Positions 8,222 to 59,152 of a DNA stretch of 64,000 nucleotides are shown here, piece by piece; the stretch's first letter is position 1; every line of letters begins with the position of its first letter. The position numbers were made by a program, and so were the translations under genes. Under the pieces are notes generated by a model. The model saw only the letters and a list, made by a program, of their open reading frames with translations, ran no database searches and was not told the DNA's origin. Source of the DNA: an uncultured cyanobacterium (lineage in GTDB: Bacteria > Cyanobacteriota > Cyanobacteriia > Cyanobacteriales > Cyanobacteriaceae); assembly GCA_963710605.1 (NCBI GenBank), contig CAVQBA010000002.1:128001-192000 (forward strand), given 5' to 3'.

Positions 8222-8876
8222 GATCGAGATTAAATCATTAAGGGCTAATGGAGCGGTAACGGACTGATTGTCAATTTTGACGTAATCGAGGTTGGTGTTG
8301 TTACTAATGGCAAAGTCACCGTTAAGAATTTCTGCCATTAATCCACTAGAGGTTAGAGAGGCAGTGAGGGAGATTCCCCCCTCTCCTTCGGAAGGAGAGG
8401 GGCTGGGGGTGAGGTTGAAAGCGTTGGGTTCAACCCCTCTGCCTATTATCGGCATCTCCCCTTCTAAGGGGAGAACAGTAGAGCTATTATAAGGAATTAA
8501 GGTGTGGTAAGTATCTGTTTTTGTATTTTGAATAGCATTAAGTATTAATACGTTGATATCGGAAGGAAGTTTACGGATACCAGGGGCTATATGGTTCTTT
8601 AGTAAGTCGTGGGGATGAGCTTGTTTGTCTAATTTTTTGTTGGCAAAGGGAGTTTCATCGATAAACCAACCTAAACCGTTGGCGTTATGATCGATTTTAA
8701 TAATACCTGCGTTAGGTTTACCCTCGGAGTCAGAAACTTGTAATGGTGGCTTCTGCTAGTTGTCCTGTGGGTAAGTCTTTTATTTCATAAGTGATATCGA
8801 TATCTGTTTGAGGTAAGAGAGTTGACCAGATGTGGTTTACGCTGTTATTTAGTTGATGAATCGTTTGGAGATTAGA

Positions 8877-9656
8877 ATGATGGACAGAGAAGAATTTTTT
8901 AGAAGGTATGATGCTGGGGAAAGGAATTTTATGGGTTACAGTGGAAGTATTGGCTCGTGCCTCGGAAATCTGAATGGTATCAATCTCCAAAATGCCATTT
9001 TGTTGAATAATTCCTTGGACCAATCTTTTTTGATTAATGCCAACTTGAGTCATGTTAATTTTGAAGGCTCCGACTTGGTTGGATGTTTCTTCAACAATTC
9101 TAATTTCAGGAATGCTAATTTGAGGAATTGTGACTTGACTGGTGCTGACTTGACTGGTGCTGACTTGACTGGTGCTGACTTGACTGGTGCTGACTTGACT
9201 GGTGCCTTCTTGCTCGATACCAATCTTACAGGAGCTAACATTACCAATGTTAAGACAAGTGGAACTATCTTTCACGAAACTATCATGCCTGATGGAAGAA
9301 TCAGTCATAAGAGTTCTCATGTTTTGGACGGAAAGGAATTGCTTAAACGTTGTCGGAAAGGTGAAACCTATTTTTCTTCCTTTATTTTGTACAAAGCCAA
9401 TTTGAATCAGACTAGTTTGAGTTCTATTACTCTCCCTTGGAGATGTATTAGAGTCAATTTTAGAAGAGTGAGCTTTGTTAATATTGACATCATTGCTAAT
9501 AATTTTGTTTTGTGTGATTTCAGGAAAGCTAATTTTAGTAGAGCGAATCTTTGGAATGGTAATTTCGCTTGTTGTGATTTCAGAGAAATTATTGGAAGTG
9601 AACAAATCAGAGGGAGTGACAGCGATGCCTTTATTTTCATTGATTGTACTAAGTAA
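8877..9656 (+). CDS. Pentapeptide-repeat protein (two modules), antisense to the large-protein remnant
   Basis: GGAG RBS 6 nt before ATG 8877; MDREEFFRRYDAGERNF N-cap, A(D/N)Lxx repeats, IFHETIMPDG cap, second module LDGKELLKRCRKGETYF. Confidence 0.85.
   Translation: MMDREEFFRRYDAGERNFMGYSGSIGSCLGNLNGINLQNAILLNNSLDQSFLINANLSHVNFEGSDLVGCFFNNSNFRNANLRNCDLTGADLTGADLTGADLTGADLTGAFLLDTNLTGANITNVKTSGTIFHETIMPDGRISHKSSHVLDGKELLKRCRKGETYFSSFILYKANLNQTSLSSITLPWRCIRVNFRRVSFVNIDIIANNFVLCDFRKANFSRANLWNGNFACCDFREIIGSEQIRGSDSDAFIFIDCTK
9131..9205. repeat. Five perfect copies of 15-bp TGACTTGACTGGTGC
   Basis: Read directly; encodes DLTGA on + and QVSTS on -. Confidence 0.95.
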
Positions 9657-13753: not shown

Positions 13754-13860
13754 AAGAATTATTTATATTTTTGAGAATTAATATTTTTACCGAAAGACAA
13801 AGTTGTTGTTACAATACGGGGGATCAGTTTAAGCTTATTTCCTCAACTCATTCATTATTT

Positions 13861-14778
13861 ATGCTTAAAAAACAGAATATTTTTAATTTACTTTCTATTT
13901 GTGCTGTTTTAACCACTACTTCTGTCTCAGCACAGCCAATAGTGACTGAAATAGAGCCAATCAGACCGATACAAGAGTTTACGACTACCCCTTTATCTAC
14001 CTCTGTCTCTACACCTACATCTATTCCTATTTATGTACCTCTACCTGAAAAATCACAATCTACAGGATATTGTAGTACTGTTTTAGCTCCTAAGATCGAA
14101 AATGTGATTCGACGTTATGGAGGAGGATGGGGTATTCTGGTTCAAAAACTAGATGATGGACAAACAATCTATCATTACAATGCCGATCGACATTTTATTC
14201 CTGCTTCTAATATGAAGTTGTTAACAACCGCCGCCGCATTGCAAAGAATCAATCCGAATACTAAAATAAGTGCTAATAAATCTTTAACTGAATGGGTTCA
14301 AATTACTAATCTTCGTAGTAATAACTATTATGCCGATACATTATTAAAAAAATTAGGTGGTGGTAGTGTAGCTAAAACTACTTTAACCAATTTAGGTGTC
14401 AATCCCGGTGGTTTTCATTTTGCTGATGGTTCGGGTTTATCTCGTCGTAATATCGCTACACCTAGAGTTTTAGTTGATACTCTTAGAGTAATGTATAGTG
14501 ATCCTAATCGGGATATCTTTTTTGCTTCTTTACCAACTGCTGGGGTGAGTGGCACTTTACGTAATCGGATGAAAAAAACCCCTGCTCAAGGTCTAGTTCA
14601 TGCTAAAACAGGTACTCTAAGAGGTGTAAGAGCATTGTCAGGTTATTTAGATCATCGAGAATATGGAACTTTGATTTTTAGCATTCTAGCGAATCATCCG
14701 AGTCAATCTGGCACAAGCTTAGTTAAAGCGATCGATGAAATCGTTTTAAGTATTAATACCACTTCAACTTGTCAATAA
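13861..14778 (+). CDS. Short peptidase S13 D-Ala-D-Ala carboxypeptidase
   Basis: PASNMK (SxxK), SNN (SxN), DGSGLSR, AKTGTL; signal peptide; lacks the internal domains seen in the 33869 paralog. Confidence 0.85.
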   Translation: MLKKQNIFNLLSICAVLTTTSVSAQPIVTEIEPIRPIQEFTTTPLSTSVSTPTSIPIYVPLPEKSQSTGYCSTVLAPKIENVIRRYGGGWGILVQKLDDGQTIYHYNADRHFIPASNMKLLTTAAALQRINPNTKISANKSLTEWVQITNLRSNNYYADTLLKKLGGGSVAKTTLTNLGVNPGGFHFADGSGLSRRNIATPRVLVDTLRVMYSDPNRDIFFASLPTAGVSGTLRNRMKKTPAQGLVHAKTGTLRGVRALSGYLDHREYGTLIFSILANHPSQSGTSLVKAIDEIVLSINTTSTCQ

Positions 14779-16755: not shown

Positions 16756-17643
16756 ATGACTCAACCAAATCAAAACGACAACATTGACATTCAAACAGAA
16801 ACTAACTCTGATGAAAATTTGATTGTGACATCAAATAAAGAAATGATTACTGATGAAGATTTAATTGTTACATCAACTGAAGAAGTTGTTTCGCCTTCAA
16901 TTTCTAAGACACCTTCTGTTTCCATGAATCAAAAAGTTGATAAACTTGGCGACTTTAGTTTAAATATACTTAGATCACTGGGTATTTTACGATTATCAGG
17001 TTATGTGTTACTAATCCTATTTTTTATGGATGCAGTAGAAATTTTAGTACCACCTCGATTTTTAAATCCAGAATGGGAATTTCAAACAATCGGACAATTT
17101 GTCGAAAGAGTACCGATTCCGTTAATTTCTCTTCTATTTATTTTTTATGGTGGTAAGTATTTACGCAAAGGTTGGGAATCGATCGTTTTATTTATTAGTT
17201 CGTGGTTAACATTATTAATAGGAATACTATTTTTAATTGCTGTACCTTTAGGTATCATTAATACATTTAGAATTGATAATACTGCTCAAACTAACATCAC
17301 TGAAGGCGCACAACAAAGATTAGAGGTTTTCCAGCAAGTAGAAGATAGATTAGATGATGTACAAACTACCGAACAAATGCAAGTTTTAATTGCTCAATTA
17401 AATAGTGGTAATGCACCTCGAATTGAAAATAATCAACAATTAGAATTAGCCAAAACAGAGCTAACTCAATTTATCGAGCAAAGTCGAAATAGACTTAATC
17501 GTGATGCTGAAGCGAGAAAAGGTCAAGCTCGAAGAAGGTTACTAAAAAGTTCTGTAAAATGGAATGTAGGTGCTTTGATTTCGGGAGTTTTGTTTATCGT
17601 AATTTGGAAGATGACTAAATGGGCAAGAGTAAAAGGAAGTTAA
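16756..17643 (+). CDS. HpsJ-family membrane protein
   Basis: PPRFLNPEWEFQTIGQFVERVPIPLI; three TMs, coiled coil, C-terminal TM. Confidence 0.7.
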   Translation: MTQPNQNDNIDIQTETNSDENLIVTSNKEMITDEDLIVTSTEEVVSPSISKTPSVSMNQKVDKLGDFSLNILRSLGILRLSGYVLLILFFMDAVEILVPPRFLNPEWEFQTIGQFVERVPIPLISLLFIFYGGKYLRKGWESIVLFISSWLTLLIGILFLIAVPLGIINTFRIDNTAQTNITEGAQQRLEVFQQVEDRLDDVQTTEQMQVLIAQLNSGNAPRIENNQQLELAKTELTQFIEQSRNRLNRDAEARKGQARRRLLKSSVKWNVGALISGVLFIVIWKMTKWARVKGS

Positions 17644-17915: not shown

Positions 17916-20393
17916 TTATTTAAAGCCGAATTTGATTTTTAAGTTATCATCAATTTCGGCTATTTCAGTAATATCTATTCCTAATTTTTCGGCATCTTTA
18001 ATTGCTTTTTTATCGGCAGTATAGGCTATTTTTTCAGTTCTATATTCTGTCGGTAATTCTTGAGGTTTAACTTTAAGTTTAATTTTGGGATATTTACGAA
18101 AACTGATATTTCTTTCTTTACCTTGAGATTTTTTATTTAGTAATCCTTGTTGATATAACTCAAGTAGTTTTTGATGTAATAATTCTTGTCCTGTTTTTAA
18201 TTGTTGTATTTGCTGTTGAAGCATTTCGTTAATTTTTTTCTGTTTAGCGATCGTACTTACTATTGCTAATTCGTATTGATCATTTATCCAAGCGAAACCA
18301 TCAATATCAACGTTTAGTTTAGTCATCAAATTAAAAACTTCGTCTTCATCTTCAGTATTAATTAATTCTTGCCAAATTTGAGCCGCTAACGGATGATAAT
18401 TTTGCGGTAAATCTTGATAATCTTCTTCAACTACTTTAGTTGAATGAGAGCTAATATTTTGACTGATATTTTCAATGGATGATTGATAATCTTCTTCCTG
18501 ATTAAAATTATCGGTAGTCAAATGAGACTTTATCCATTCTGTTTTCATTTGGGCTAAAGACTCATCATAAAGTTGTAATATCTCCACGGAAGAGTGCATC
18601 TGTCTTTGTTGATAAATTTGTTGTAGTTGGGTTAATAACAAATGACGATTTTCGAGATCGGTATCTAGTTTTGAATATTGTTTGAATTGAAGATAAAATC
18701 GATTTAAACGATCGTCAAAGATATTTTGGCTTGAATTTGAGGTATTAATAAAAATCAGTTTTACTTGTCTTAAATCGCTATTTACACGAAGATAACTAAT
18801 TATTTCGGTTGCAAAAACGATCGCAATTTGCTCAACAGAAAGAGAAATCCCGTCAGCTAAAAAGACAGGAAAAGCGATCGACTCATAAGCACTAGTATCG
18901 GCTAAGGTGAGACAACGATGTACAATCGTTTGAATTAATTTTAAGTCAGTGAGTTGAGGATGCGCATAGTCATAAATCACAGCATGAAAAATAGTATCTA
19001 CCAATAAATTTCCGGCATTAGTGGTGATGATTTGCCCTAGTTGCTTAACGTTGGTTTGCTTTAATTGTTGAGTAATAGTTTTCCCGCCTTTAGTAACTAT
19101 TTCAGTAGCGATGGCTTCACTTAAAGATAAATCTCGATCGAGATAATTTATTAATACCTCTGTATTGATATTATCGATCGTGTTATATTCTAAAACCAAT
19201 TCAGTTTGATTGATGGTTGTATCCCAAAGCAGGTTACTAAAATTAGTCGAAGTCTGGGAATAATTACTAGTATTTAATTCAGTCGGATTTAATTGTAAAC
19301 CCTGTAAATTTTGCCAAGTGAGGGGTAAGCTAGCGGGATTTTGGCAGATAATAGGCAACCACGTGGCACAAGGATAGTCTTTTTCTAAAGGTTGTAATTT
19401 TTCTCTGGCTTGTCTGACGGCTAAATATAAAGGTTGATTATTAGCAAAACTTTGTAAAAATTGACGAATAAAAACGTGGGCAACCGCATCGGGTATCATT
19501 TCACCCATGACGATAATTTGGGCTAGATGTAAATTAGCTAAATCCTCGGCTAAACCAATTCCTTCACAAGAGTTAAAAATAGCAAGTCTTAAACCTTTAG
19601 CAATGGCTTTTTTTAGTGCTTTATTTAAGTCTTCGATTGTGATAATATCACTGTTGTTAAGGTGGAGTTTTCCTTCTCTAGTCTCTTGATTTGTACCGCT
19701 ATGCCCTGCAAAAAAAAGAATATCCCATTCTTGCTCATAAAGATGATTAAATAATTCTTCGGAGGTAGGAGTTACTAATGTAGTGATTTGAGCCGTTTTG
19801 AGATTACTGATAGCGTCTAAATCCGGTTGCAAGTCGATGCCTTCACTATTACCAAAAACAGCTAAAATTTTGATTTGGCTATGGTTTGCCGGAGGTAAAT
19901 TAATATTAGTATATTCGACAGGAGCGATCGCTACCTCAGCTTGAGGATAACGATTAAGAAAAGCATCAAAAAATAAATGCCAAGGAAGAAAACGTAATTC
20001 AGAAATATCAGTTTGTACCAAAAGACGAATCATATCTTGTGGATTTAACTCAGTCGAAAGTTTTTCACGCACTGTAGCAAAAGATTCTTGAGGGGAATTA
20101 TACCAACTAGATAACGCTACTTTTAATTGCGAAGCCGATTGCTGACAAGTATGGGTAATGTGGGTAATTTGTCTTGGGGATGAACCAAGTCTTACTTTTT
20201 GGTGTAAACTACGATAACTATTTTGCCATTGCTGATAATGTTGAGTAATAGGTTGGCAAGGAGGAAGTTTCCCTTTAATTGTGGTAAAAGGATGGGTAAT
20301 TCGATCGGGGTTATCTTCACAAATTTGGACGGTAACCGCAAATCCGTTGGCAAAATTACCTGATTCGATTTTAAACAGAATTAACTTACCCAT
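17916..20393 (-). CDS. CHAT (caspase-like) protease fused to a Macro-like domain and a C-terminal Siphovirus Gp157-like domain
   Basis: LRFLPWH, DILFFAGHS (His), LAIFNSCEG (Cys); TTNAGNLLVDTIFHAV...SIAFPV; PQELPTEYR...ADKKAIKDAEKLGIDI; ATG at 20393. Confidence 0.75.
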   Translation of the reverse strand: MGKLILFKIESGNFANGFAVTVQICEDNPDRITHPFTTIKGKLPPCQPITQHYQQWQNSYRSLHQKVRLGSSPRQITHITHTCQQSASQLKVALSSWYNSPQESFATVREKLSTELNPQDMIRLLVQTDISELRFLPWHLFFDAFLNRYPQAEVAIAPVEYTNINLPPANHSQIKILAVFGNSEGIDLQPDLDAISNLKTAQITTLVTPTSEELFNHLYEQEWDILFFAGHSGTNQETREGKLHLNNSDIITIEDLNKALKKAIAKGLRLAIFNSCEGIGLAEDLANLHLAQIIVMGEMIPDAVAHVFIRQFLQSFANNQPLYLAVRQAREKLQPLEKDYPCATWLPIICQNPASLPLTWQNLQGLQLNPTELNTSNYSQTSTNFSNLLWDTTINQTELVLEYNTIDNINTEVLINYLDRDLSLSEAIATEIVTKGGKTITQQLKQTNVKQLGQIITTNAGNLLVDTIFHAVIYDYAHPQLTDLKLIQTIVHRCLTLADTSAYESIAFPVFLADGISLSVEQIAIVFATEIISYLRVNSDLRQVKLIFINTSNSSQNIFDDRLNRFYLQFKQYSKLDTDLENRHLLLTQLQQIYQQRQMHSSVEILQLYDESLAQMKTEWIKSHLTTDNFNQEEDYQSSIENISQNISSHSTKVVEEDYQDLPQNYHPLAAQIWQELINTEDEDEVFNLMTKLNVDIDGFAWINDQYELAIVSTIAKQKKINEMLQQQIQQLKTGQELLHQKLLELYQQGLLNKKSQGKERNISFRKYPKIKLKVKPQELPTEYRTEKIAYTADKKAIKDAEKLGIDITEIAEIDDNLKIKFGFK

Positions 20394-20660
20394 AAATAAT
20401 GAATAATAAATAACGTACAATGAACAATTAATAATGAACAATGAATAATTAATTTACTAATTACTCTTATCCTGTCTCAATCTTAATCTAAACGACTATA
20501 ACTAATAATATAGCTAGTTATTAGAACTTACGCATTGACCCTAAATGTAGAGTAGGTAGTACCAAACTTTCTCCTACAGATAGCGTTAATAAAAGCTATT
20601 TTAATATTATTGTTATTTTCTTAATTCTTTTTGTAAACGACGATTGTAATTATTACTTTA

Positions 20661-21218
20661 ATGAATATCAATCAAGACTATTACCTTATTGTTGATTTGG
20701 AAGCTACTTGTAGTAACGATAAGTCTATTTCTTCTAAGAAAATGGAAATTATTGAAATAGGGGCGGTGATGCTCAATTCAACCACTCTGGAAGTAGAAAG
20801 CGAATATCAAACTTTTGTTAAGCCAATATTGTATCCTCAATTAACGGATTTTTGTAAGTCTCTTACTTCTATTACTCAAGAAGACGTTGATAATGCCCCT
20901 TTATTTCCTGATGCACTTAAAGATTTTCAATCTTGGTTTTATCCTTTTGGCAGTTATCTTTTTTGCTCTTGGGGAGACTATGACAAAAATCAGTTTAAGC
21001 TTGATTGTAAGTTATATAATATTGGTTACCCTTTTGCTAGTGAGCATCTTAATCTTAAGAAAGAATATACGGTTGTGACTAATTCTGCCAAAAAATGGGG
21101 AATGGTACAAGTATTAGAGCAACTAGATTTAAAATTAGAAGGTACACATCATAGAGGGATTGATGATGCTCGCAATATTGCCCGTATTGTTAAAGCTATA
21201 CGATCGAAACCGGTATGA
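20661..21218 (+). CDS. DEDDh 3'-5' exonuclease (ERI-1/KapD-like)
   Basis: IVDLEATC, EIIEIGAV, SWGDYD, HHRGIDDARNIA. Confidence 0.9.
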   Translation: MNINQDYYLIVDLEATCSNDKSISSKKMEIIEIGAVMLNSTTLEVESEYQTFVKPILYPQLTDFCKSLTSITQEDVDNAPLFPDALKDFQSWFYPFGSYLFCSWGDYDKNQFKLDCKLYNIGYPFASEHLNLKKEYTVVTNSAKKWGMVQVLEQLDLKLEGTHHRGIDDARNIARIVKAIRSKPV

Positions 21219-26623: not shown

Positions 26624-28447
26624 ATGGATAATAGCTTTGAGCAAATATCTCTACTAATGCGTCAAAGTACCCTTGGCAAATTACTTCCAAATAATCTTTA
26701 CGTTCATATTTCAGCTTTGGAATATTTAGATTCATCAATTCAAGAATATGAAAAAAAATCGAGAAATATTCTTAACAATCATCTAGATTTTACTTTAATT
26801 AAATTTAATTTTACTAAAGCTAAAATATCATATCTTACTTATCCTGATTTTGATGATTCTCCTCATCCTATTTTAACTAAAAGTACGATCGTTGATTTAG
26901 AAACCCAAACTACTAAAACGATCGATTATAGTAAATCACAAAACCCACCAATTCTTCATCGTAAAGAAACTTTTGTAACAAATGACTATTCTCACTACGA
27001 AAAATTTGCTCATTTAACAACTGTTGAAGAAAAATTAGGTTTACTAGATAATCCTCGTTATATCGGTACTCTCAAACAATGGCAAAAACTAATTGATGAT
27101 CATTCTCTTTATTTTCTTGATCATTATTTAGTTTGTAATTTGGCAGATAATCCACAAGAATTTGTCAACATTGAACGTCATCGTGCCGCTATGTTTAGAA
27201 ATAGACTTTCTCGCCCTGTTAAATTAGTGCTAGAAGCAGGTTTATTTGAGCCACAAATGAGCTTTTTTGATTATGGCTGTGGTCGTGGCTTAGATGTAGA
27301 AATTGTTGCTCTTAAAGGTCATAAAAGTAGTGGTTGGGACCCTTATTATGCTCCTTATAATGTATTAGAAAAAGCAGATCTGGTTAATTTAGGTTATATT
27401 ATTAATGTTATTGAAAATGTTGCTCAAAGAAGAGAAGCTTTGATACAAGCATGGTCATTAACTCTTGACATTTTGATTGTTTCAGCTCAAGTTTTAATCG
27501 ACGATCGACAAAGAGGTTATTTAGCTTACGCTGATGGTATTATCACCGAAAGAAATACATTTCAAAAATACTATCAACAAGAAGAATTAAAAATTTATAT
27601 CGAACAAGTTTTAAACTCTGAAGCGATTCCCATTGCCTTAGGAGTTTTTTTAGTCTTTAGAAACCCTGATAAAGCGAATAATTTTCGAGTATCACGTTTT
27701 CATTCTAATTTACAATCACCTCGCATTTTAAAACCAGTTAAAAAGTTTGCTGATTATGAGCAAATACTAACTCCTTTAATGGATTTTTATAGTAAAAGGG
27801 GTAGATTACCTCTTAAAGGAGAATTGGCTGTCGAAGACGAAATTAAAGCCGAATTTAGAGGTTTTAAACAAGCATTCAAAACTATATTACAAGTAACCGA
27901 AGAAGCACAATGGGAAGAAATTGCCGATTGTCGTCGTCAGGATATATTATTATATTTAGCACTCGGTCGTTTTGAGCAAAGACCAAGTTTTAGGCAACTA
28001 CCTTCATTAGTGAAAAATGATATCAAAAGATTATTTGGTAGTTATCAAGCCGCTTGTTTTCTAGCTGATGAAATGTTAATTTCGATTGGAAATCTAGACA
28101 TTATTCGGCAAATTTGTCAAGAGTTAAAAATAGGTAAAGCTTTTGAAAAAAGTTTTTTAATTCATATTGAGATGTTAAATTCTTTACCAACTTTGTTACG
28201 TTTATATGAAGGTTGTGCTAGTCGTACGATCGGTAGAATGGAGTCAGCAAATTTAGTTCGTTTCCATTTTACTGCCCCGAAAATTAGTTATCTTTGTGTA
28301 CCCGATTTTGAAACAGAAAAAAAACCCAAAGTTGATTCTATCATGACGATCGCTTTACAAGACTTAAGAGTACAATATCGAGATTTTGCGACAGAAGACA
28401 ATGCACCAATTATTAACGATAAAAAAGCCTTAAAAGTTAAAAGTTAA
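26624..28447 (+). CDS. DNA phosphorothioation-associated putative methyltransferase family protein
   Basis: GKLLPNNLYVHISAL, ISYLTYPDFDDSPHPIL, NPPILHRKETFV, FDYGCGRG, GWDPYY, VNLGYIINVIE, TFQKYY. Confidence 0.8.
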   Translation: MDNSFEQISLLMRQSTLGKLLPNNLYVHISALEYLDSSIQEYEKKSRNILNNHLDFTLIKFNFTKAKISYLTYPDFDDSPHPILTKSTIVDLETQTTKTIDYSKSQNPPILHRKETFVTNDYSHYEKFAHLTTVEEKLGLLDNPRYIGTLKQWQKLIDDHSLYFLDHYLVCNLADNPQEFVNIERHRAAMFRNRLSRPVKLVLEAGLFEPQMSFFDYGCGRGLDVEIVALKGHKSSGWDPYYAPYNVLEKADLVNLGYIINVIENVAQRREALIQAWSLTLDILIVSAQVLIDDRQRGYLAYADGIITERNTFQKYYQQEELKIYIEQVLNSEAIPIALGVFLVFRNPDKANNFRVSRFHSNLQSPRILKPVKKFADYEQILTPLMDFYSKRGRLPLKGELAVEDEIKAEFRGFKQAFKTILQVTEEAQWEEIADCRRQDILLYLALGRFEQRPSFRQLPSLVKNDIKRLFGSYQAACFLADEMLISIGNLDIIRQICQELKIGKAFEKSFLIHIEMLNSLPTLLRLYEGCASRTIGRMESANLVRFHFTAPKISYLCVPDFETEKKPKVDSIMTIALQDLRVQYRDFATEDNAPIINDKKALKVKS

Positions 28448-28544: not shown

Positions 28545-29045
28545 CTATTCTGTACTATTTTTCTTAGCACGACGAATTAATTCTTGAGGGCTTAAATCAG
28601 CGACAAAACTCTTAAATGCGTCCATTTCTTCTTGATCAGCTTCTTGATCGACAGGGATAGAAGCATTAATCAAAACTTCTTCCATCACCCAAATCGGACA
28701 ACCTACACGTAAAGCGATTGCGATCGCATCACTAGGGCGAGAATCAATATTTTTTTCCAGATCACCTTGTTTAGTACAAAGAATGGCATAAAAAGTATGA
28801 TCTTCAATAGAATTAATGATTACTTTATCTAATTCTAAATTCCAGACATTAATCAAATTAACCATTAAATCATGAGTTAGAGGGCGAGGCGACTCTTGAT
28901 TTTCTAAAACGTTCATAATCGATTTAGCCTGTTCTTGAGTGACGTAGATAGGCAATGCACGACGTTCGGTTGCGTCTTTTAAGAGTATGATGGGACTGCG
29001 AGATCTAGCATCAAAAGCGATCGCGGCTACTTTCATTTCGATCAT
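28545..29045 (-). CDS. Bifunctional nuclease family protein (DUF151)
   Basis: RALPIY, PRPLTHDL, IDSRPSDAIAIALR. Confidence 0.9.
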   Translation of the reverse strand: MIEMKVAAIAFDARSRSPIILLKDATERRALPIYVTQEQAKSIMNVLENQESPRPLTHDLMVNLINVWNLELDKVIINSIEDHTFYAILCTKQGDLEKNIDSRPSDAIAIALRVGCPIWVMEEVLINASIPVDQEADQEEMDAFKSFVADLSPQELIRRAKKNSTE

Positions 29046-29211
29046 CAATTTATTCCTCTAGAAGAAATTAGCACTTGCATAATAATAATTATAAGGTAAA
29101 TTGACAACAGTTAGACCAATAACTGCCGAGTAAAGCGAACAAGTAGTTATCAAAATACCAAGAAAATATAATCAATAATTACTCAATCAATAATTCAAAT
29201 TTAATTAAGCG

Positions 29212-33868: not shown

Positions 33869-35389
33869 ATGAAAATATCACAGTCAAGGAGAAAAATAAA
33901 AAGTACAATTAAGAAAAAAGTTTTAGCATATCTATTCAGTTTAAATAGTATTTTTTTGCTTACTCCTACGACTATAAATGCTCAAGAATCAATCGTATCC
34001 AATAATCTTGAAAAAATATGTGTTACTGATTTACCGAGACAAATAGAAAAAATTTTAAATCAACCTGAGCGGTTAGCAGAAAATTGGGGTATTTTAATTA
34101 AAGAATTAGATAGCGATCGAGTTTTATACGAATTAAATAGTAATAAATATTTTATCCCCGCTTCTAATACCAAATTATTAACTACCGCTTCAGCTTTATT
34201 GAAATTAAAACCAGATTTTCAGATTACAACACCTGTTTATATTCAAAGAGAAAAAAATACTTTAAATACTCTAATCATAGAAGGAAAAGGCGATCCAACT
34301 TTTAAAAAAGAAAATTTGGTTACTCTTGCTCAAACACTACAAAAACAAGGTATCAATAAAATAGATAATTTGATATTAGTTGATAATTATTTACCACTAC
34401 CTGCAAATAATTATAGTTGGGAATTTTCCGATCTTTTTTATTATTATGCTGTCCCTGTTAATAGCTTAATTTTAGAAGATAATGTCGTGACTTTGACAGT
34501 AAATCCTAGTCTTGTTAACAATCGAGTTTTGATTAAATGGAGTGATGAGATTGCAGGTAAGCAATGGCAAATAGATAATCAAGGAATAACAGCTAATTAT
34601 GATAGTGAATATAATCTTAGTTTTAAACCTTCATTATTAGAACCAAAAATAACGATCGAAGGTACGTTAGCGAGTAACGAAACTGATGATAATTGGTTAT
34701 TGTCTATTCCTTATCCCGATCGATATTTTCGTGATGTTTTACTCATTACTTTAGCTAGTTATGATATTACTGTTTTGAATAGTCAAATATTAAAGTACGA
34801 TGAATATCGAGAAGATGAATCACTAGCTAATAAACAACTATTATTAGAGTTCACTTCACCTAATTTAGACGAATTAATTACGATCGTTAATCAAAAAAGT
34901 GATAATTTATATGCTGAGGTTTTGTTTAAGTATTTAGCAGTAGATACAGACAGTTTAAATCCAGCAATATCTTTAAGTGAAACGTTAACGGATTTGGGTC
35001 TAGAAGCTCAAGATTATCAGTTAAAAGATGGCTCAGGTTTGTCTCGTCAAAATTTAGTTAAACTCAAGGCATTAGTCTCTGTTTTAAAATTAATGAATCA
35101 GAGTAAACATCAGCAAACTTTTCGTGATTCTTTGACTATAGCAGGAGTAAATGGCACTCTCAAAAATCGATTTAAAGATACCAGTATCGTTAACAATTTA
35201 CAAGGCAAAACAGGTAGTCTTACAGGTGTTTCTGCTTTATCGGGTTATTTAACTCCACCAAACTATGATGAATTAGTTTTTTCTATTATCGTTAATCAAT
35301 CGACAGATAGTTCAAAAGTTCTTAGAAAAACGATCGATGATATTGTTTTAACTATGGGTAAATTATCTTCTTGTAATTCTTTTAATTAA
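33869..35389 (+). CDS. dacB: D-Ala-D-Ala carboxypeptidase/endopeptidase (PBP4)
   Basis: PASNTK, GKGDPTF, KSDNLYAE, DGSGLSR, GKTGSL. Confidence 0.9.
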   Translation: MKISQSRRKIKSTIKKKVLAYLFSLNSIFLLTPTTINAQESIVSNNLEKICVTDLPRQIEKILNQPERLAENWGILIKELDSDRVLYELNSNKYFIPASNTKLLTTASALLKLKPDFQITTPVYIQREKNTLNTLIIEGKGDPTFKKENLVTLAQTLQKQGINKIDNLILVDNYLPLPANNYSWEFSDLFYYYAVPVNSLILEDNVVTLTVNPSLVNNRVLIKWSDEIAGKQWQIDNQGITANYDSEYNLSFKPSLLEPKITIEGTLASNETDDNWLLSIPYPDRYFRDVLLITLASYDITVLNSQILKYDEYREDESLANKQLLLEFTSPNLDELITIVNQKSDNLYAEVLFKYLAVDTDSLNPAISLSETLTDLGLEAQDYQLKDGSGLSRQNLVKLKALVSVLKLMNQSKHQQTFRDSLTIAGVNGTLKNRFKDTSIVNNLQGKTGSLTGVSALSGYLTPPNYDELVFSIIVNQSTDSSKVLRKTIDDIVLTMGKLSSCNSFN

Positions 35390-45331: not shown

Positions 45332-45625
45332 TCATGGATGCCTAGTTAAGGCTTTATGTACCGCTTCTGGCTCTCGGTCAATTACAAATAATAAGGTTCT
45401 AGCAGGGCCAGATGGTACACGCCTACCCTGTTCCCACTCTTGTATAGTTCTGACAGAGACACCAAATTGATTAGCAAAGGTATCTTGAGTCATATTCAGT
45501 TTTTTTCGGATACGTTGGACATTAATTTGTTCGTCTATGTGAACAACCGCACCGTTATTTTCACCCTTTACAAAAGCAAGTGCTTCTTCCATACCTTTAA
45601 TCATACTTTCACCCAATTCACTCAT
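45332..45625 (-). CDS. HigA-like XRE-HTH antitoxin
   Basis: IRKKLNMTQDTFANQFGVSVRTIQEWEQGRRVPSGPA; start overlaps the toxin stop. Confidence 0.88.
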   Translation of the reverse strand: MSELGESMIKGMEEALAFVKGENNGAVVHIDEQINVQRIRKKLNMTQDTFANQFGVSVRTIQEWEQGRRVPSGPARTLLFVIDREPEAVHKALTRHP

Positions 45626-45965
45626 TTTGTTCCCTCTGATAAAATTTAACAATATTAGTAGATAAAGTTTTTAAGACTTTTTTCTCTTTAGCCGTAAGGT
45701 TATCCTTCTGATTCTTGGCATAAATGGTAATCATAAATACAGGTATGTTAATACCACTGAAAAAAGTAATAACCCGATACCCTCCACTTTTTCCTTTACC
45801 TTTAGAAGCTACGCGTAATTTTCGCATTCCTCCTGTACCAACTATTTCATCACCTAAATCTGGATTAGAAGCAATCATATTGATAATGCTTTCACGTTGA
45901 TCGTTTGAGATGCCTAATTGTTTAGCACATCTTATAAATTCGGGCATTTCGACAACACTTTGCAT
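45618..45965 (-). CDS. RelE/HigB-family toxin
   Basis: GDEIVGTGGMRKLRV, GKGKSGGYRVI, IYAKNQKDNLT. Confidence 0.9.
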   Translation of the reverse strand: MQSVVEMPEFIRCAKQLGISNDQRESIINMIASNPDLGDEIVGTGGMRKLRVASKGKGKSGGYRVITFFSGINIPVFMITIYAKNQKDNLTAKEKKVLKTLSTNIVKFYQREQNE

Positions 45966-55638: not shown

Positions 55639-58600
55639 GTGTCTAACTCACTTAACACAGCATTACCAGAAACTCTTACTTTTTCAGTTATTTACGACGG
55701 AGGAACAGAGCCAGATTCTAGTTATTTTGACGCTACAATTTATGATGTTGTTGGCGATAGCGTTTTTGACGGCTCAGTTTTTGATGCCTATTGTATCGAT
55801 GCAGACAGAGTTATTGGTTTAGGTAATTCTAGACGATTTGTTGGACAAGTATATTCTAGTTATGAAACTTTACCTGCAAACTTCACTCAAGGAACTTATT
55901 TAGAAAACCCTCAAAATTTAGATTTAGTTAATTGGATTATTAACCAAGGATTCATTGGTAAAACATCTTCAGATAATGGTAAAGTATTTAGTTCTAGTGA
56001 TGTACAAATAGCGATCTGGACATTACTTGATGATAATATTGGCACAGGAGGTCTCGGTCGTGAAGGTGGTGCATGGACTCAAGCTAGAGTTGATGAAATT
56101 GTACAATTAGCTCAAGCTAATGGCGAAGGTTTTGTACCTAGCTATGAATATACTACTTATTTTGGTGAGCAAGTAACAGGTAAATTAGGTATGATAATAC
56201 TTCCTAGAGTTGATAGTGAAGGTTTACCTACCAAACAAACAATTATACGTTCCTATTGAATTAGCACAATTAGGCGATCGAGTTTGGTTTGATACAGATG
56301 CTGACGGAATCCAAGATGCAGGAGAAGATGGAATATCAGGAGTAGAAGTTAGCCTTTTAGCTGATATTAATGGTGATGGTAACATTGACGCTTCAGAAGT
56401 AATAGAAACCACTACCACCGATGCTGACGGAAACTACGATTTTGAAGTAGTACCCGGAGAATATAGAGTTGCATTCGATCAGCCTGAAGGATTCGGTGTT
56501 AGCCCAGTCGATGCAGGTGGTGATGATACAGTTGATAGTGACGGATTAATCTCTGATGTTGTCACTCTCAGCCCCGGAGAATTCAATCCAACGATCGATT
56601 CAGGATTTTACGAGTTAGCATCATTAGGAGATTTTGTTTGGCACGACTTAAACGCTGATGGTATTCAAAACGATAACGAACCAGGAATTGCTAACGCAGA
56701 AGTTCAATTAATTAATCCTGCTACAGGGGATATAATCGCAACAACCACAACAGATGCAGATGGCTTGTACAACTTTGATAATCTAGAACCAGGTGATTAT
56801 AAGGTGAAGTTTATCACTCCTAATGGTTTTACCGAAAATAGTCCAGCAGATCAAGGTGGTGACGATGCGATCGATAGTGATGGCATGATGGTAACAACCA
56901 ACTTATCAGTAGGTGAAAATGACCTCACATTAGATTCAGGTTTTTATAACTTAGCATCCTTAGGAGACTATGTTTTTATTGATAACAATGGTGACGGAGT
57001 CCAAAATGCAGGAGACAGTGCGATCGGTGGAGTTACTGTAGAATTACTTCAAGATGGTTCAGTAATTGGTACGACTACCACTAACTCAGATGGTAGTTAC
57101 TTATTTGATGGTTTAACCCCTGGAGATTACCAAGTAAAATTTACTGCTCCCCAAAATTACAATTTCACAACAGCGAATGTAGGTGATGATAGTTTAGATA
57201 GTGATGCGGATGCTACTACAGGTTTGACTTCTGTTGTCACTTTAACTAGTGGTGAATTCAACTCAACATTAGATGCGGGCTTAGTTGAGAATGCACCCGC
57301 TCCTATTGAAGAAATTGACATTGAAAAATTTGTCAACGGTATTGATGTCACTAATATTAATAATCTTCCTAGTATAGTTGCAGGTGAAGACGTTACTTTC
57401 ACTTATACCGTTAAAAATACAGGTAATGTTGATTTTGCTTTTAATGAGGTGATTGTTGTTGATGATAACGGTACACCATTAGATACTAGTGATGATTTTA
57501 CTCCTACTTTGGTTGCTTCTTCTGATGATGGTGCTGATGGTATTCTTAGTGCAGATGAAACTTGGTTATATACTTCTACTACCCAAGCGGCTCAAGATTT
57601 AGCTACTACCGTTAGTCAAGATGTTTCATTTACTTTTAATGGTAATAGTTCTTCTGCTAACGTTTTTGGTAACGATCGTACCTTTACAAGTGATGGTGTT
57701 ACCGTTGATGTTTCAGCTTTTAGTTTTAATAGTAGTAAAGGTTGGCAAAATGCTTTTGTTGGTGATTACAGCGGCGGTTTAGGTGTTATCAATCGTAATA
57801 GCGATTCTGATCATCGTATTGATAATACTGGTAGTCTTGATTTTCTGGTTTTTGAATTTGATAATGATGTCGTAGTCGATAAAGCATTCCTCAAATATGT
57901 CGGAAGTGATAGTGATATCTCTTTCTGGATTGGCGATCGCAATGGTGATATCTCTCACCTTAACAATAATATTCTCAACGGCTTTACTGAAGGTCAAAAT
58001 TGGGGTGGAAGTAACGATCGTTGGGCAAACATTAACAATAATGAATTGAGCGGTAACACATTTATCATCTCTGCACATGAGCATGGTACTAATGATTCAT
58101 TCAAACTTAATAAACTCGATATCTCGAAAATAACTACTTCTGGTGATAGTAGTTATGTTAATACTGCTACTGTTGAAGCAGGTTCAGCAATTGATAGTGA
58201 TGCAAGTGGTTATATTAACGAAGTTGCTAATCCTGGTATTAATTTAGAAAAATTCACCAATGGTTTTGATGTTACCGACGCTAACAATCTTCCTACGATC
58301 GCCGTTGGTGCAGATGTAACCTTTACTTATACTGTCGAAAATACAGGTAACGTTAGTTTTGCATTATCTGATGTCGATCTAGTTGATGATAACGGCACAC
58401 CAGATAATGCTCACGATGATTTTGCTCCGACTTTAGATGCTTCATCTGATATTAACTCAGATGGTATTCTTAGCCCTGGTGAAACATGGACATATTCCTC
58501 AGCTACCGAAGCCGCTCAAGAATTAACTGTTACCACTAAAGAAGATGTCTGGTTTACATTTAATGGTCACAGCTCATCATCTTATACTTATGGTAACGAG

Positions 58601-59152
58601 CGTAGCTTTACAAGTGGTGAGGTAAGTGTTGATGTTACAGCTTTTAGTTCTAATAGTCATGGAAATGATTGGAAAACTGCTTATGTTGGTGATTATAGTG
58701 GTGGTTTAGGTGTTATTAATCGTCACGAAGATAGCTCTCTTCACCGTACAGATAACAGTGGTAGTGTTGATTATCTCTTATTCCAATTTGATAGTGAAGT
58801 TGCTGTAGATAAAGCATTACTCAAATATGTTGGAAGCGATAGCGATATTTCTTACTGGATTGGCGATCGTAATGGTGACATCACTAACTTAGATGATAGT
58901 ATTCTTGATGGCTTTAGTGAAGGTCAAAGCTGGGGTGGAAGTCACGATCGTTGGGCTAATATTAATAATAATGAATTAACTGGTGATACCTTAGTTATTT
59001 CGGCAATGAGAGGCGGTAGCAATGATTCATTCAAACTAAACAAACTTGGTGTTGATGCTTTCACTACTACTAGTACCGATTATGTCAATATAGCCACTGT
59101 TGATACTGGATTAGTTAGCGATACTGATTTTAGTGGTTATATTAATGCTTAA
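55639..59152 (+). CDS. Large surface protein: thioester-like N-terminal domain, three SdrD B-like repeats, two tandem Ig-like C-terminal modules; frameshift near 56247
   Basis: YCID and VQIAIW motifs; LGDRVWFD / LGDFVWHD / LGDYVFID repeats; two IEKFxNG...TFTYTVxNTGNV modules; removing one base joins both ORFs (1170 aa). Confidence 0.8.

Follow-up and report, generated by a model that had tools for sequence, protein, structure and literature searches.

The 64-kb window analyzed here (64,000 nucleotides of contig CAVQBA010000002.1, assembly GCA_963710605.1, from an uncultured member of the Cyanobacteriaceae) carries on its minus strand a gene for a CHAT (caspase-like) protease that is joined, within one polypeptide, to a macro domain and to a C-terminal Sipho_Gp157 domain, and this protein is discussed below as a candidate sensor-protease. 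Translation from the ATG at position 20393 reads MGKLILFKIESG, and the open reading frame (ORF) list had extended the gene to a TTG at 20441. MGKL is the N-terminus of all 23 aligned homologs; therefore, the gene was taken to be 17916-20393 with a product of 825 amino acids, which is the span that an earlier note, made from the sequence alone, had given it. The gene is its own, monocistronic transcription unit. Two direct copies of ATTGTTCATT were seen 26-49 bases upstream of the start codon; these are the only copies in the window, and since 4 of 100 shuffled sequences also gave two copies this is a weak signal. The positions of the gene, of its domains and of other features are collected in Table 1.

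Among 5.8 billion proteins searched, 35 clusters of homologs were found, 792-833 amino acids long, that span 100% of the query at 39-74% identity. Five named genomes or genome bins of Geminocystis (Geminocystis sp. NIES-3708, NIES-3709, GBBB08 and CENA526, and G. herdmanii) have full-length homologs at ~61-64% identity, as does Cyanobacterium aponinum, where identity is down to 59%. Several of them lie on contigs of 3.9-4.3 Mb, including complete Geminocystis genomes, and these, with the 35 full-length clusters, rule out a misassembly; the three-domain fusion described in the earlier note is thus real. The source names attached to the 35 clusters were "CHAT domain-containing protein", "macro domain-containing protein", "adenylate cyclase", which we judge to be a misnomer, and "O-acetyl-ADP-ribose deacetylase", and precomputed Pfam annotation gave the Gp157 family (PF05565) for just 2 of the 35. 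The query was aligned with 23 of these homologs picked for spread, the other 12 being left out (alignment A1, 24 sequences). Mean pairwise identity in A1 was 0.66 for the N-terminal domain, 0.69 for CHAT, 0.41 for the linker 363-397, 0.52 for the macro domain, 0.40 for the linker 563-663 and 0.59 for the Gp157 tail, which is therefore better conserved than the macro domain. To judge by these values, every domain is under constraint.

The CHAT domain was recognized in the window protein by Pfam (PF12770, residues 112-345, E = 4.5e-15, 56.3 bits against a cut-off of 24), and the same profile matched 24 of 24 aligned orthologs. His231, within FAGHS (228-232), and Cys276, within FNSCEG (273-278), are invariant in all 24 aligned sequences, which confirms the CHAT domain with intact His and Cys that had been noticed earlier. 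Missing from that description was an extra domain of ~110 amino acids ahead of CHAT. Residues 1-389 aligned with a CHAT-CHASE2 protein (P0044) at 47% identity, collinearly from Met1, with the similarity ending at about residue 360, and hundreds of cyanobacterial proteins matched the first 44% of the query only, at ~45% identity. The C-termini found behind this same N-terminus are CHASE2, pentapeptide repeats, NACHT/AAA, WD40 and cyclase. The parts of Kaur, Iyer, Burroughs and Aravind (2021, eLife, PMC8195603) drawn on here describe EACC2 as a novel alpha+beta domain that forms a constant module with a caspase, behind which the C-terminus varies greatly; CHASE2, PDZ, kinase and STAND are named among these C-termini, and macro fusions are mentioned. 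The supplementary architecture strings consulted include EACC2+CASPASE+CHASE2+TM+TM and EACC2+CASPASE+nSTAND1+BetaPropeller, and proteins with strings such as the former are named CHAT domain-containing by NCBI. We infer that residues 1-110 are the EACC2 domain of Kaur et al. because the architecture matches these published strings. On this assignment, residues 1-360 are the constant part, EACC2 + caspase, of a family of cyanobacterial conflict systems, followed by a lineage-specific C-terminal half, and the linker between the two is a candidate autoprocessing region. A death domain at residues 58-107 was also considered and dropped, as 6 of the 24 orthologs matched it and all of them below the cut-off (best E = 0.0049). 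A PDB profile search with A1 gave no match over the CHAT region.

The macro domain was likewise matched by Pfam in the window protein (PF01661, residues 418-514, E = 1.9e-9, 37.9 bits against a cut-off of 22), in agreement with the earlier note, and NCBIfam gave weak macro matches only. When the A1 profile was compared with all PDB sequences, residues 398-562 matched best to PARP14 (3vfq, 2e-24; 3q71, 8.4e-17), then to TTHA0132 (3.9e-14), macroH2A1.1 (3.3e-11) and MacroD-type enzymes; the best PDB match of the single sequence was 5o2d (7.6e-11). The best residue alignment was obtained with the second macro domain in 3vfq (PARP14 macro2). PARP14 macro2 is a non-catalytic reader of the macroH2A-like kind, and the macro domain of the window protein is classed here with this reader type. 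Its loop 1 is NSVPLDLVLSRGPLS in place of NAAN...GGG, and the window protein is likewise without NAAN and GGG; in loop 2, FPAIGTGNLGFP of PARP14 macro2, with its GTGNLG diphosphate loop, corresponds to FPVFLADGISLS, with LADGIS, in the window protein. Neither this loop 2 nor the loop 1 of the window protein, DLSLSEAI, is a canonical glycine-rich phosphate loop. All four motifs quoted in the earlier note were found, including NYLD (416-419) and SEAI (425-428), and its view that these are altered ligand motifs holds with the amendment that the loop 1 change is typical for this macro subtype and that loop 2 differs from that of PARP14.

The remodeled pair, DLS[ML/F..][SG/A]E.. and FP.F/L.P.NS., is shared by 19 of the 24 A1 sequences, namely the window protein and its Geminocystis/Cyanobacterium-like relatives, and places an acidic residue at the glycine position (DLSLSEAI, FPVFLADG). 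The five most distant orthologs are nearer to canonical, as in P0036 (YLSMGGGV and FPALVTGS), P0035 (YLSMSDGV and FPALATGM) and P0037 (YLSMSNGV and FPALVTDR). Being conserved across the clade, the loop change speaks for a re-specified pocket and against random decay. Given that an acidic residue stands in for the glycines, binding of the ADP-ribose diphosphate in the classical manner is doubtful in the window protein, and the domain is probably a re-specified ligand or protein-contact module and not an ADP-ribose hydrolase.

On the window protein alone, Sipho_Gp157 (PF05565) matched residues 714-809 with E = 0.0092 and 16.4 bits, under the cut-off of 28.6; across the family, 19 of 24 full-length orthologs matched it at E<=1, the best at 7.4e-8. 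A profile (A2) was made of 13 C-terminal tails, comprising those of the window protein and of a related locus in Geminocystis sp. GBBB08 (L001) and parts of 11 orthologs. Against 1.84 billion representatives, A2 matched 157 proteins at E<=1e-3 and 34 at E<=1e-10, and the matches outside its own family were nearly all stand-alone proteins of 145-220 amino acids, aligned over almost the whole profile. From the 150 A2 matches listed, 51 were scanned, taking the best-scoring non-fragments and a sample lower down, and 42 of the 51 were PF05565 at E<=1e-3, most of them above the cut-off and across the 162-position model; five of the nine that did not match were re-scanned at E<=1, and four of these five gave a weak PF05565 match. 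An hhalign comparison of A2 with orf157 of Streptococcus phage Sfi21, the founder of the family and itself PF05565 at 3.1e-41, gave a probability of 80.8% (E = 1.3e-5) with a collinear match in the non-helical part, columns 108-146. In addition, PHROG 253 matched 13 of 13 tails (best 2e-12; window tail 1.1e-6), although it had been overlooked in a PHROGs scan of the whole protein, which returned nothing significant. An ESM Atlas search with the tail gave 23 Gp157 proteins among 30 matches, the best clusters included (score 0.91). Searches of other kinds were less productive: tblastn of the tail against phage genomes gave nothing below E = 0.4, and a word-based search for short tail relatives gave two fragments only. 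From the profile comparisons, the tail is a genuine, complete and divergent Gp157 domain, with a fold that has no solved relative. The Gp157-like C-terminus of the earlier note, which falls below the cut-off when the protein is taken by itself, is thereby confirmed at the family level. The domain shares with the Sipho_Gp157 family the ~160-amino-acid length, the order of elements and the C-terminal motifs; Gp157 proteins of phages and plasmids stand alone, whereas the window protein has the domain attached to a protease of the host.

AlphaFold models of the tail comprise two short helices, a helix of 52 residues (697-748) and, at the C-terminus, a small subdomain, with a mean predicted local distance difference test score (pLDDT) of 79.7 when 13 sequences were used and 92.9 when 44 were used. 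This amends the coiled coil of the earlier note: the long helix belongs to the Gp157 domain, and a further linker, 563-663, is presumed helical and gave weak coiled-coil-type PDB matches only (E = 0.0095-0.086). The C-terminal subdomain (751-825) is basic, with a net charge of +7 and a family median of +4, and the N-terminal domain has a net charge of +5; CHAT, the macro domain, the linker and the Gp157 helix are acidic. A Foldseek search of predicted viral structures (BFVD) with the less confident tail model gave one match at E<=1e-3 and, at rank 2, a protein named Siphovirus Gp157 (3.3e-3, template modeling (TM) score 0.39), the matches having TM scores of 0.39-0.42.

The nearest stand-alone relatives of the tail are cyanobacterial proteins (Stanieria, Pleurocapsa, Scytonema hofmannii and Symploca), some of which are named "siphovirus Gp157 family protein" by NCBI. 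One of them has kin on 32 plasmid records, all cyanobacterial and 25 of them predicted to be conjugative. On the Stanieria plasmid pSTA7437.01 the Gp157 gene is surrounded by small unnamed genes, with a MOBP relaxase ~4 kb away, and on pANACY.01 of Anabaena cylindrica it adjoins two-component genes. In phages, the family is found in replication and recombination modules: orf157 is the first gene of the Sfi21 replication module, and Vibrio phage D96a has a PF05565 protein (2.4e-29), with the annotation "Mu Gam-like end protection", whose gene overlaps that of an exonuclease. By these relatives, of which the cyanobacterial stand-alone genes are common on large conjugative plasmids, the Gp157 domain derives from a mobile-element family of phages and plasmids. 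Separately, five cyanobacterial Gp157 proteins (P0124, P0125, P0142, P0147 and P0162) were seen to carry N-terminal extensions of 90-370 amino acids without a Pfam family, several of them with recurring short helical motifs, and these may be other uses of the Gp157 domain.

PHROGs also labels PHROG 253 "Mu Gam-like end protection". Mu Gam (PF07352), which binds the ends of double-stranded DNA in a Ku-like way and is annotated as a nuclease inhibitor in the Mu record, is like Gp157 in size and in its long N-terminal helix. An hhalign comparison of 44 Gp157 sequences (A3) with three Gam proteins gave a probability of 28.6% (E = 6.1e-4), collinear over 106 columns, and PF05565 occurs together with PF07352 in some ESM Atlas clusters. 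PF07352 was matched by 2 of the 24 orthologs at E = 0.13, and Mu Gam itself matches PF07352 only, not PF05565. Taken together, a Gp157-Gam kinship is suggestive and no more. The Gam-like label of the family is, in the part of PMC13299392 consulted, purely in silico, and a "resistance" label of Gp157 goes back, in the part of PMC6356513 consulted, to a non-coding origin element.

The protein belongs to the published EACC2-caspase class, with which it shares the constant N-terminal module and a variable C-terminus, macro fusions having been named there; what sets it apart is the full-length Gp157 domain in the variable half. Unlike the published examples, the C-terminus here consists of Macro, linker and Gp157, and TRADD-N, ECF sigma and DUF1822 genes are not nearby. 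In the portions of PMC8195603 consulted, the C-terminal domains are predicted to sense stimuli and so to activate the autopeptidase, with TRADD-N or ECF sigma proteins acting downstream of it, and a linked TRADD-N gene, or an ECF sigma gene with a DUF1822 TPR gene, is described for the majority of EACC2 neighborhoods, not for all. Gp157 occurs zero times in PMC8195603, and a CASPASE+Macro string was not found in its supplementary files 1 and 3. Literature searches on Gp157 function, on CHAT, macro and cyanobacteria, and on Gp157 with CHAT, judged by title, found no description of a fusion with a Gp157 tail. The earlier note had not recognized the architecture, and this stands for the Gp157 tail, which was not found in print; it does not stand for CHAT+Macro, which is present in public databases. 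Among immune proteases, SAVED-CHAT of type III-B CRISPR systems, the caspase of type IV Thoeris and TPR-CHAT (Craspase) also couple a protease to a sensor domain or partner, with proteolysis following activation, as proposed below for the window protein; their sensor domains differ from those seen here, and, unlike them, the window gene has no linked signal generator or CRISPR locus. According to the part of 10.1101/2024.10.24.620036 drawn on here, SAVED-CHAT and the caspase of type IV Thoeris, which has a sensor domain at its C-terminus, are ligand-activated caspase-like proteases, and in type II Thoeris a Macro domain is the receptor for histidine-ADP-ribose (His-ADPR).

Table 1. Positions in the window of the CHAT-Macro-Gp157 gene, its domains, neighboring genes and other features.
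Feature	Residues	Positions	Strand	Basis or remark
CHAT-Macro-Gp157 gene, 825 amino acids + stop		17916..20393	minus	ATG at 20393, stop 17916-17918
N-terminal alpha+beta domain	1-110	20064..20393	minus	collinearity with CHAT-CHASE2 protein P0044
CHAT (caspase-like) protease domain	111-362	19308..20063	minus	Pfam PF12770, His231/Cys276
Linker	363-397	19203..19307	minus	poorly conserved; divides constant module from variable half
Macro domain	398-562	18708..19202	minus	PF01661; closest to human PARP14 macro2
Linker	563-663	18405..18707	minus	low conservation, acidic (net charge -8), presumed helical
Sipho_Gp157 / PHROG 253 domain, 162 amino acids	664-825	17919..18404	minus	profile homology, AlphaFold
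ATTGTTCATT, two direct copies		20419-20428, 20433-20442	minus	upstream of the CHAT gene
HpsJ-like, cyanoexosortase-A-associated gene		16756-17643		convergent with the CHAT gene
KapD-like DEDD 3'-5' exonuclease gene		20661-21218	plus	divergent from the CHAT gene
RecJ-like protein, 762 amino acids		22209-24497	plus	two genes beyond the KapD-like gene
Antisense ORF		8730-9605		STSQV repeats
Pentapeptide-repeat gene		8853-9656	plus	run of TGADL repeats
Peptidase_S13 gene, first		13771-14778	plus	D-Ala-D-Ala carboxypeptidase; 335 amino acids
Gene for 607-amino-acid protein		26624-28447	plus	TIGR04096, 720 bits
Bifunctional-nuclease-domain gene		28545-29048		adjoins the TIGR04096 gene
Peptidase_S13 gene, second		33869-35389	plus	D-Ala-D-Ala carboxypeptidase
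Small ORF		45332-45652		adjacent to the RelE-type toxin gene
RelE-type toxin gene		45618-45965	minus	PF06296
Thioester-domain ORF and overlapping 980-amino-acid protein		55639-59152	plus	SdrD B-like repeats in the latter

Synteny was assessed against L001 as the single comparator. The same convergent HpsJ-like neighbor is present there, at 58% identity and followed by an exosortase gene, and the other flank carries different genes; the pairing of the KapD-like and RecJ-like genes is absent from L001. The RecJ-like protein has a long C-terminal extension and scored 230.9 bits against a RecJ equivalog cut-off of 396.9. Other neighbors in the window encode CdsA, a PilZ protein, an acyltransferase, an S13 peptidase, NagA and photosynthesis proteins. 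The identity of the fusion protein in these two genomes is 63%, as against 58% for the HpsJ-like protein; therefore, on this single comparison, it does not appear to evolve faster than its neighbor.

Several features elsewhere in the window were recorded in their own right. The 607-amino-acid protein carries the TIGR04096 designation [quoted passage not shown], and no other dnd gene was recognized among its scanned neighbors. The antisense ORF with STSQV repeats is probably a mirror image of the TGADL run of the pentapeptide-repeat gene. The small ORF adjacent to the RelE-type toxin gene could be its partner. The thioester-domain ORF and the protein that overlaps it look like one large surface adhesin gene, possibly in two frames. 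The first of the two Peptidase_S13 proteins is short, and its profile match is split into two stretches, as if it were a shortened paralog.

We tentatively read the gene as encoding a self-contained sensor-protease of the EACC2-caspase (CHAT) class, a reading to which we assign a probability of roughly 40%. The C-terminal half would then be the input device: the long Gp157 helix, which looks like a dimerization element, may mediate pairing, the basic subdomain may bind nucleic acid or a partner, and the Gp157 module would recognize an invader-associated signal. If the Gam-like annotation is right, this signal could be DNA ends or replication intermediates; alternatively, it could be the invader's own Gp157, engaged by homotypic pairing. 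Engagement would activate CHAT, either by bringing CHAT domains into proximity or by relieving autoinhibition, and the activated protease would process itself within the variable linker, cleave targets in the cell, or do both, with the result that the infected cell is stopped or that downstream signaling follows. The earlier note had proposed a phage-sensing protease with the Gp157 part as decoy or sensor. Given that the first 360 residues are of the EACC2-caspase type, a conflict or cell-death role is reasonable; phage sensing is plausible by analogy only, and the decoy is one of several readings. A fuller version, in which this lineage captured a plasmid or phage Gp157 protein with Gam-like properties and wired it through the re-specified macro domain to a caspase-like protease that is fired by invader DNA ends or replication intermediates, or by Gp157 pairing, is quite unlikely in all its particulars.

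A number of observations weigh against a sensor of invaders. The genomic context consists of housekeeping genes and is not a defense island, PADLOC matched the protein to zero families, and no TIR, ECF sigma, DUF1822 or TRADD-N gene was found among the scanned ORFs of at least 100 amino acids in the window; none of these was found among the 11 ORFs scanned in L001 either. The neighborhood thus lends no support to the phage sensing that the earlier note had proposed. Because the neighbor shows similar identity and homologs occur in named relatives, the evidence points to a gene that is vertically inherited, unlike an arms-race gene, and not part of a mobile defense island. In a word-based search with the cassette of residues 385-825 (matching proteins of 453-1444 amino acids), 29 of 30 matches sit behind this same N-terminus, so that there is no sign of the shuffling of effectors that is typical of immune sensors. 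For the tail itself, Foldseek with both models gave no match in the PDB at E<=1e-3, solved Gam and Ku structures included, which is a weak negative as these are monomer models of a probably oligomeric protein; the hhalign probability of A3 against Mu Gam alone was 1.7%. Finally, the literature consulted on Gp157 function, in the parts available, holds in-silico labels only and no tested role for any member.

These same points lend some weight to a housekeeping role, in which the protein would be a lineage-specific regulatory protease of Geminocystis/Cyanobacterium-type cyanobacteria, acting in stress, DNA-damage or envelope-polysaccharide control, with Gp157 and macro as long-domesticated interaction modules unrelated to invaders. 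The presence of homologs in the five Geminocystis genomes or bins and, at lower identity, in C. aponinum, the conservation of all domains, the syntenic HpsJ-like neighbor with an exosortase gene nearby in L001, and the lack of defense genes nearby (by PADLOC and among the scanned window ORFs) speak for such a role. Set against this, the N-terminal family carries STAND, WD40, LRR and CHASE2 sensor arrays and is argued, in the portions of PMC8195603 consulted, to be a conflict system, phages and plasmids are the source of the family to which the C-terminal domain belongs, and the synteny derives from one comparator genome. On balance we hold this role to be doubtful.

In a second alternative, CHAT would be a processing peptidase only; once activated, it would cut in the linker past residue ~360 and set the Macro-Gp157 half free as an effector. 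This effector might be a Gam-like protein that caps or occupies the DNA ends of an invader, or it might serve as a decoy by titrating one of the invader's factors. Such a release has a parallel in the analogous EACC1 systems, which are proposed, in the part of Kaur et al. (2020, PMC7159879) consulted, to free variable C-terminal domains by proteolysis and let them diffuse, and it would fit the sharp boundary between constant and variable parts, the poorly conserved linker that follows it, and a Gp157 tail that is complete and of the size of stand-alone proteins. A cleavage site is, however, not known, PMC8195603 in the parts consulted favors a sensory role for the C-terminal domains of EACC2 proteins, and a macro domain with degenerate loops next to a non-enzymatic Gp157 domain would make a weak effector; we therefore rate it as unlikely.

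The two remaining explanations fare less well. In a Thoeris-like scheme, the macro domain would bind a messenger derived from nicotinamide adenine dinucleotide (NAD) and made by an unlinked TIR protein or other enzyme, CHAT would thereby become active, and the Gp157 tail would serve for oligomerization only. This scheme would combine the macro receptor of type II with the caspase-like effector of type IV (both as in the part of 10.1101/2024.10.24.620036 cited above), and the distant ortholog P0036 keeps canonical-looking loops. It is very unlikely for the window protein, as both phosphate loops are replaced in it and in the rest of the 19 remodeled sequences, with an acidic residue for the glycines, no TIR gene or other signal generator was found among the scanned window ORFs, and PADLOC gave no match to Thoeris type II or type IV effectors. 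Lastly, that the Gp157 call is a coiled-coil artifact and the tail merely a helical extension, as the sub-cut-off Pfam score of the single sequence, the richness of the Gp157 family in helix and the weak BFVD matches might suggest, is effectively refuted by the reciprocal profile search, which returned PF05565 proteins at full length with their non-helical C-terminal motifs, by the hhalign match to Sfi21 orf157 in non-helical columns, and by PHROG 253 matching every tail.

If the fuller version of the sensor-protease reading is true, the window protein would be an immune receptor baited with a domesticated copy of an invader protein. To the bacterial caspase-like proteases it would add a single-gene example with an input domain derived from mobile elements. 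The macro loops, remodeled in a coordinated way in one clade and canonical in sister lineages, offer a natural contrast for the ligand question. Gp157 is among the commonest genes of unknown function in siphovirus replication modules and is common on cyanobacterial conjugative plasmids. That a host protein has fixed a full-length Gp157 domain behind a protease suggests that the domain has an exploitable binding activity and offers a tractable way to find it, and, should the fuller version hold, the protein would provide the first functional handle on this widespread family.

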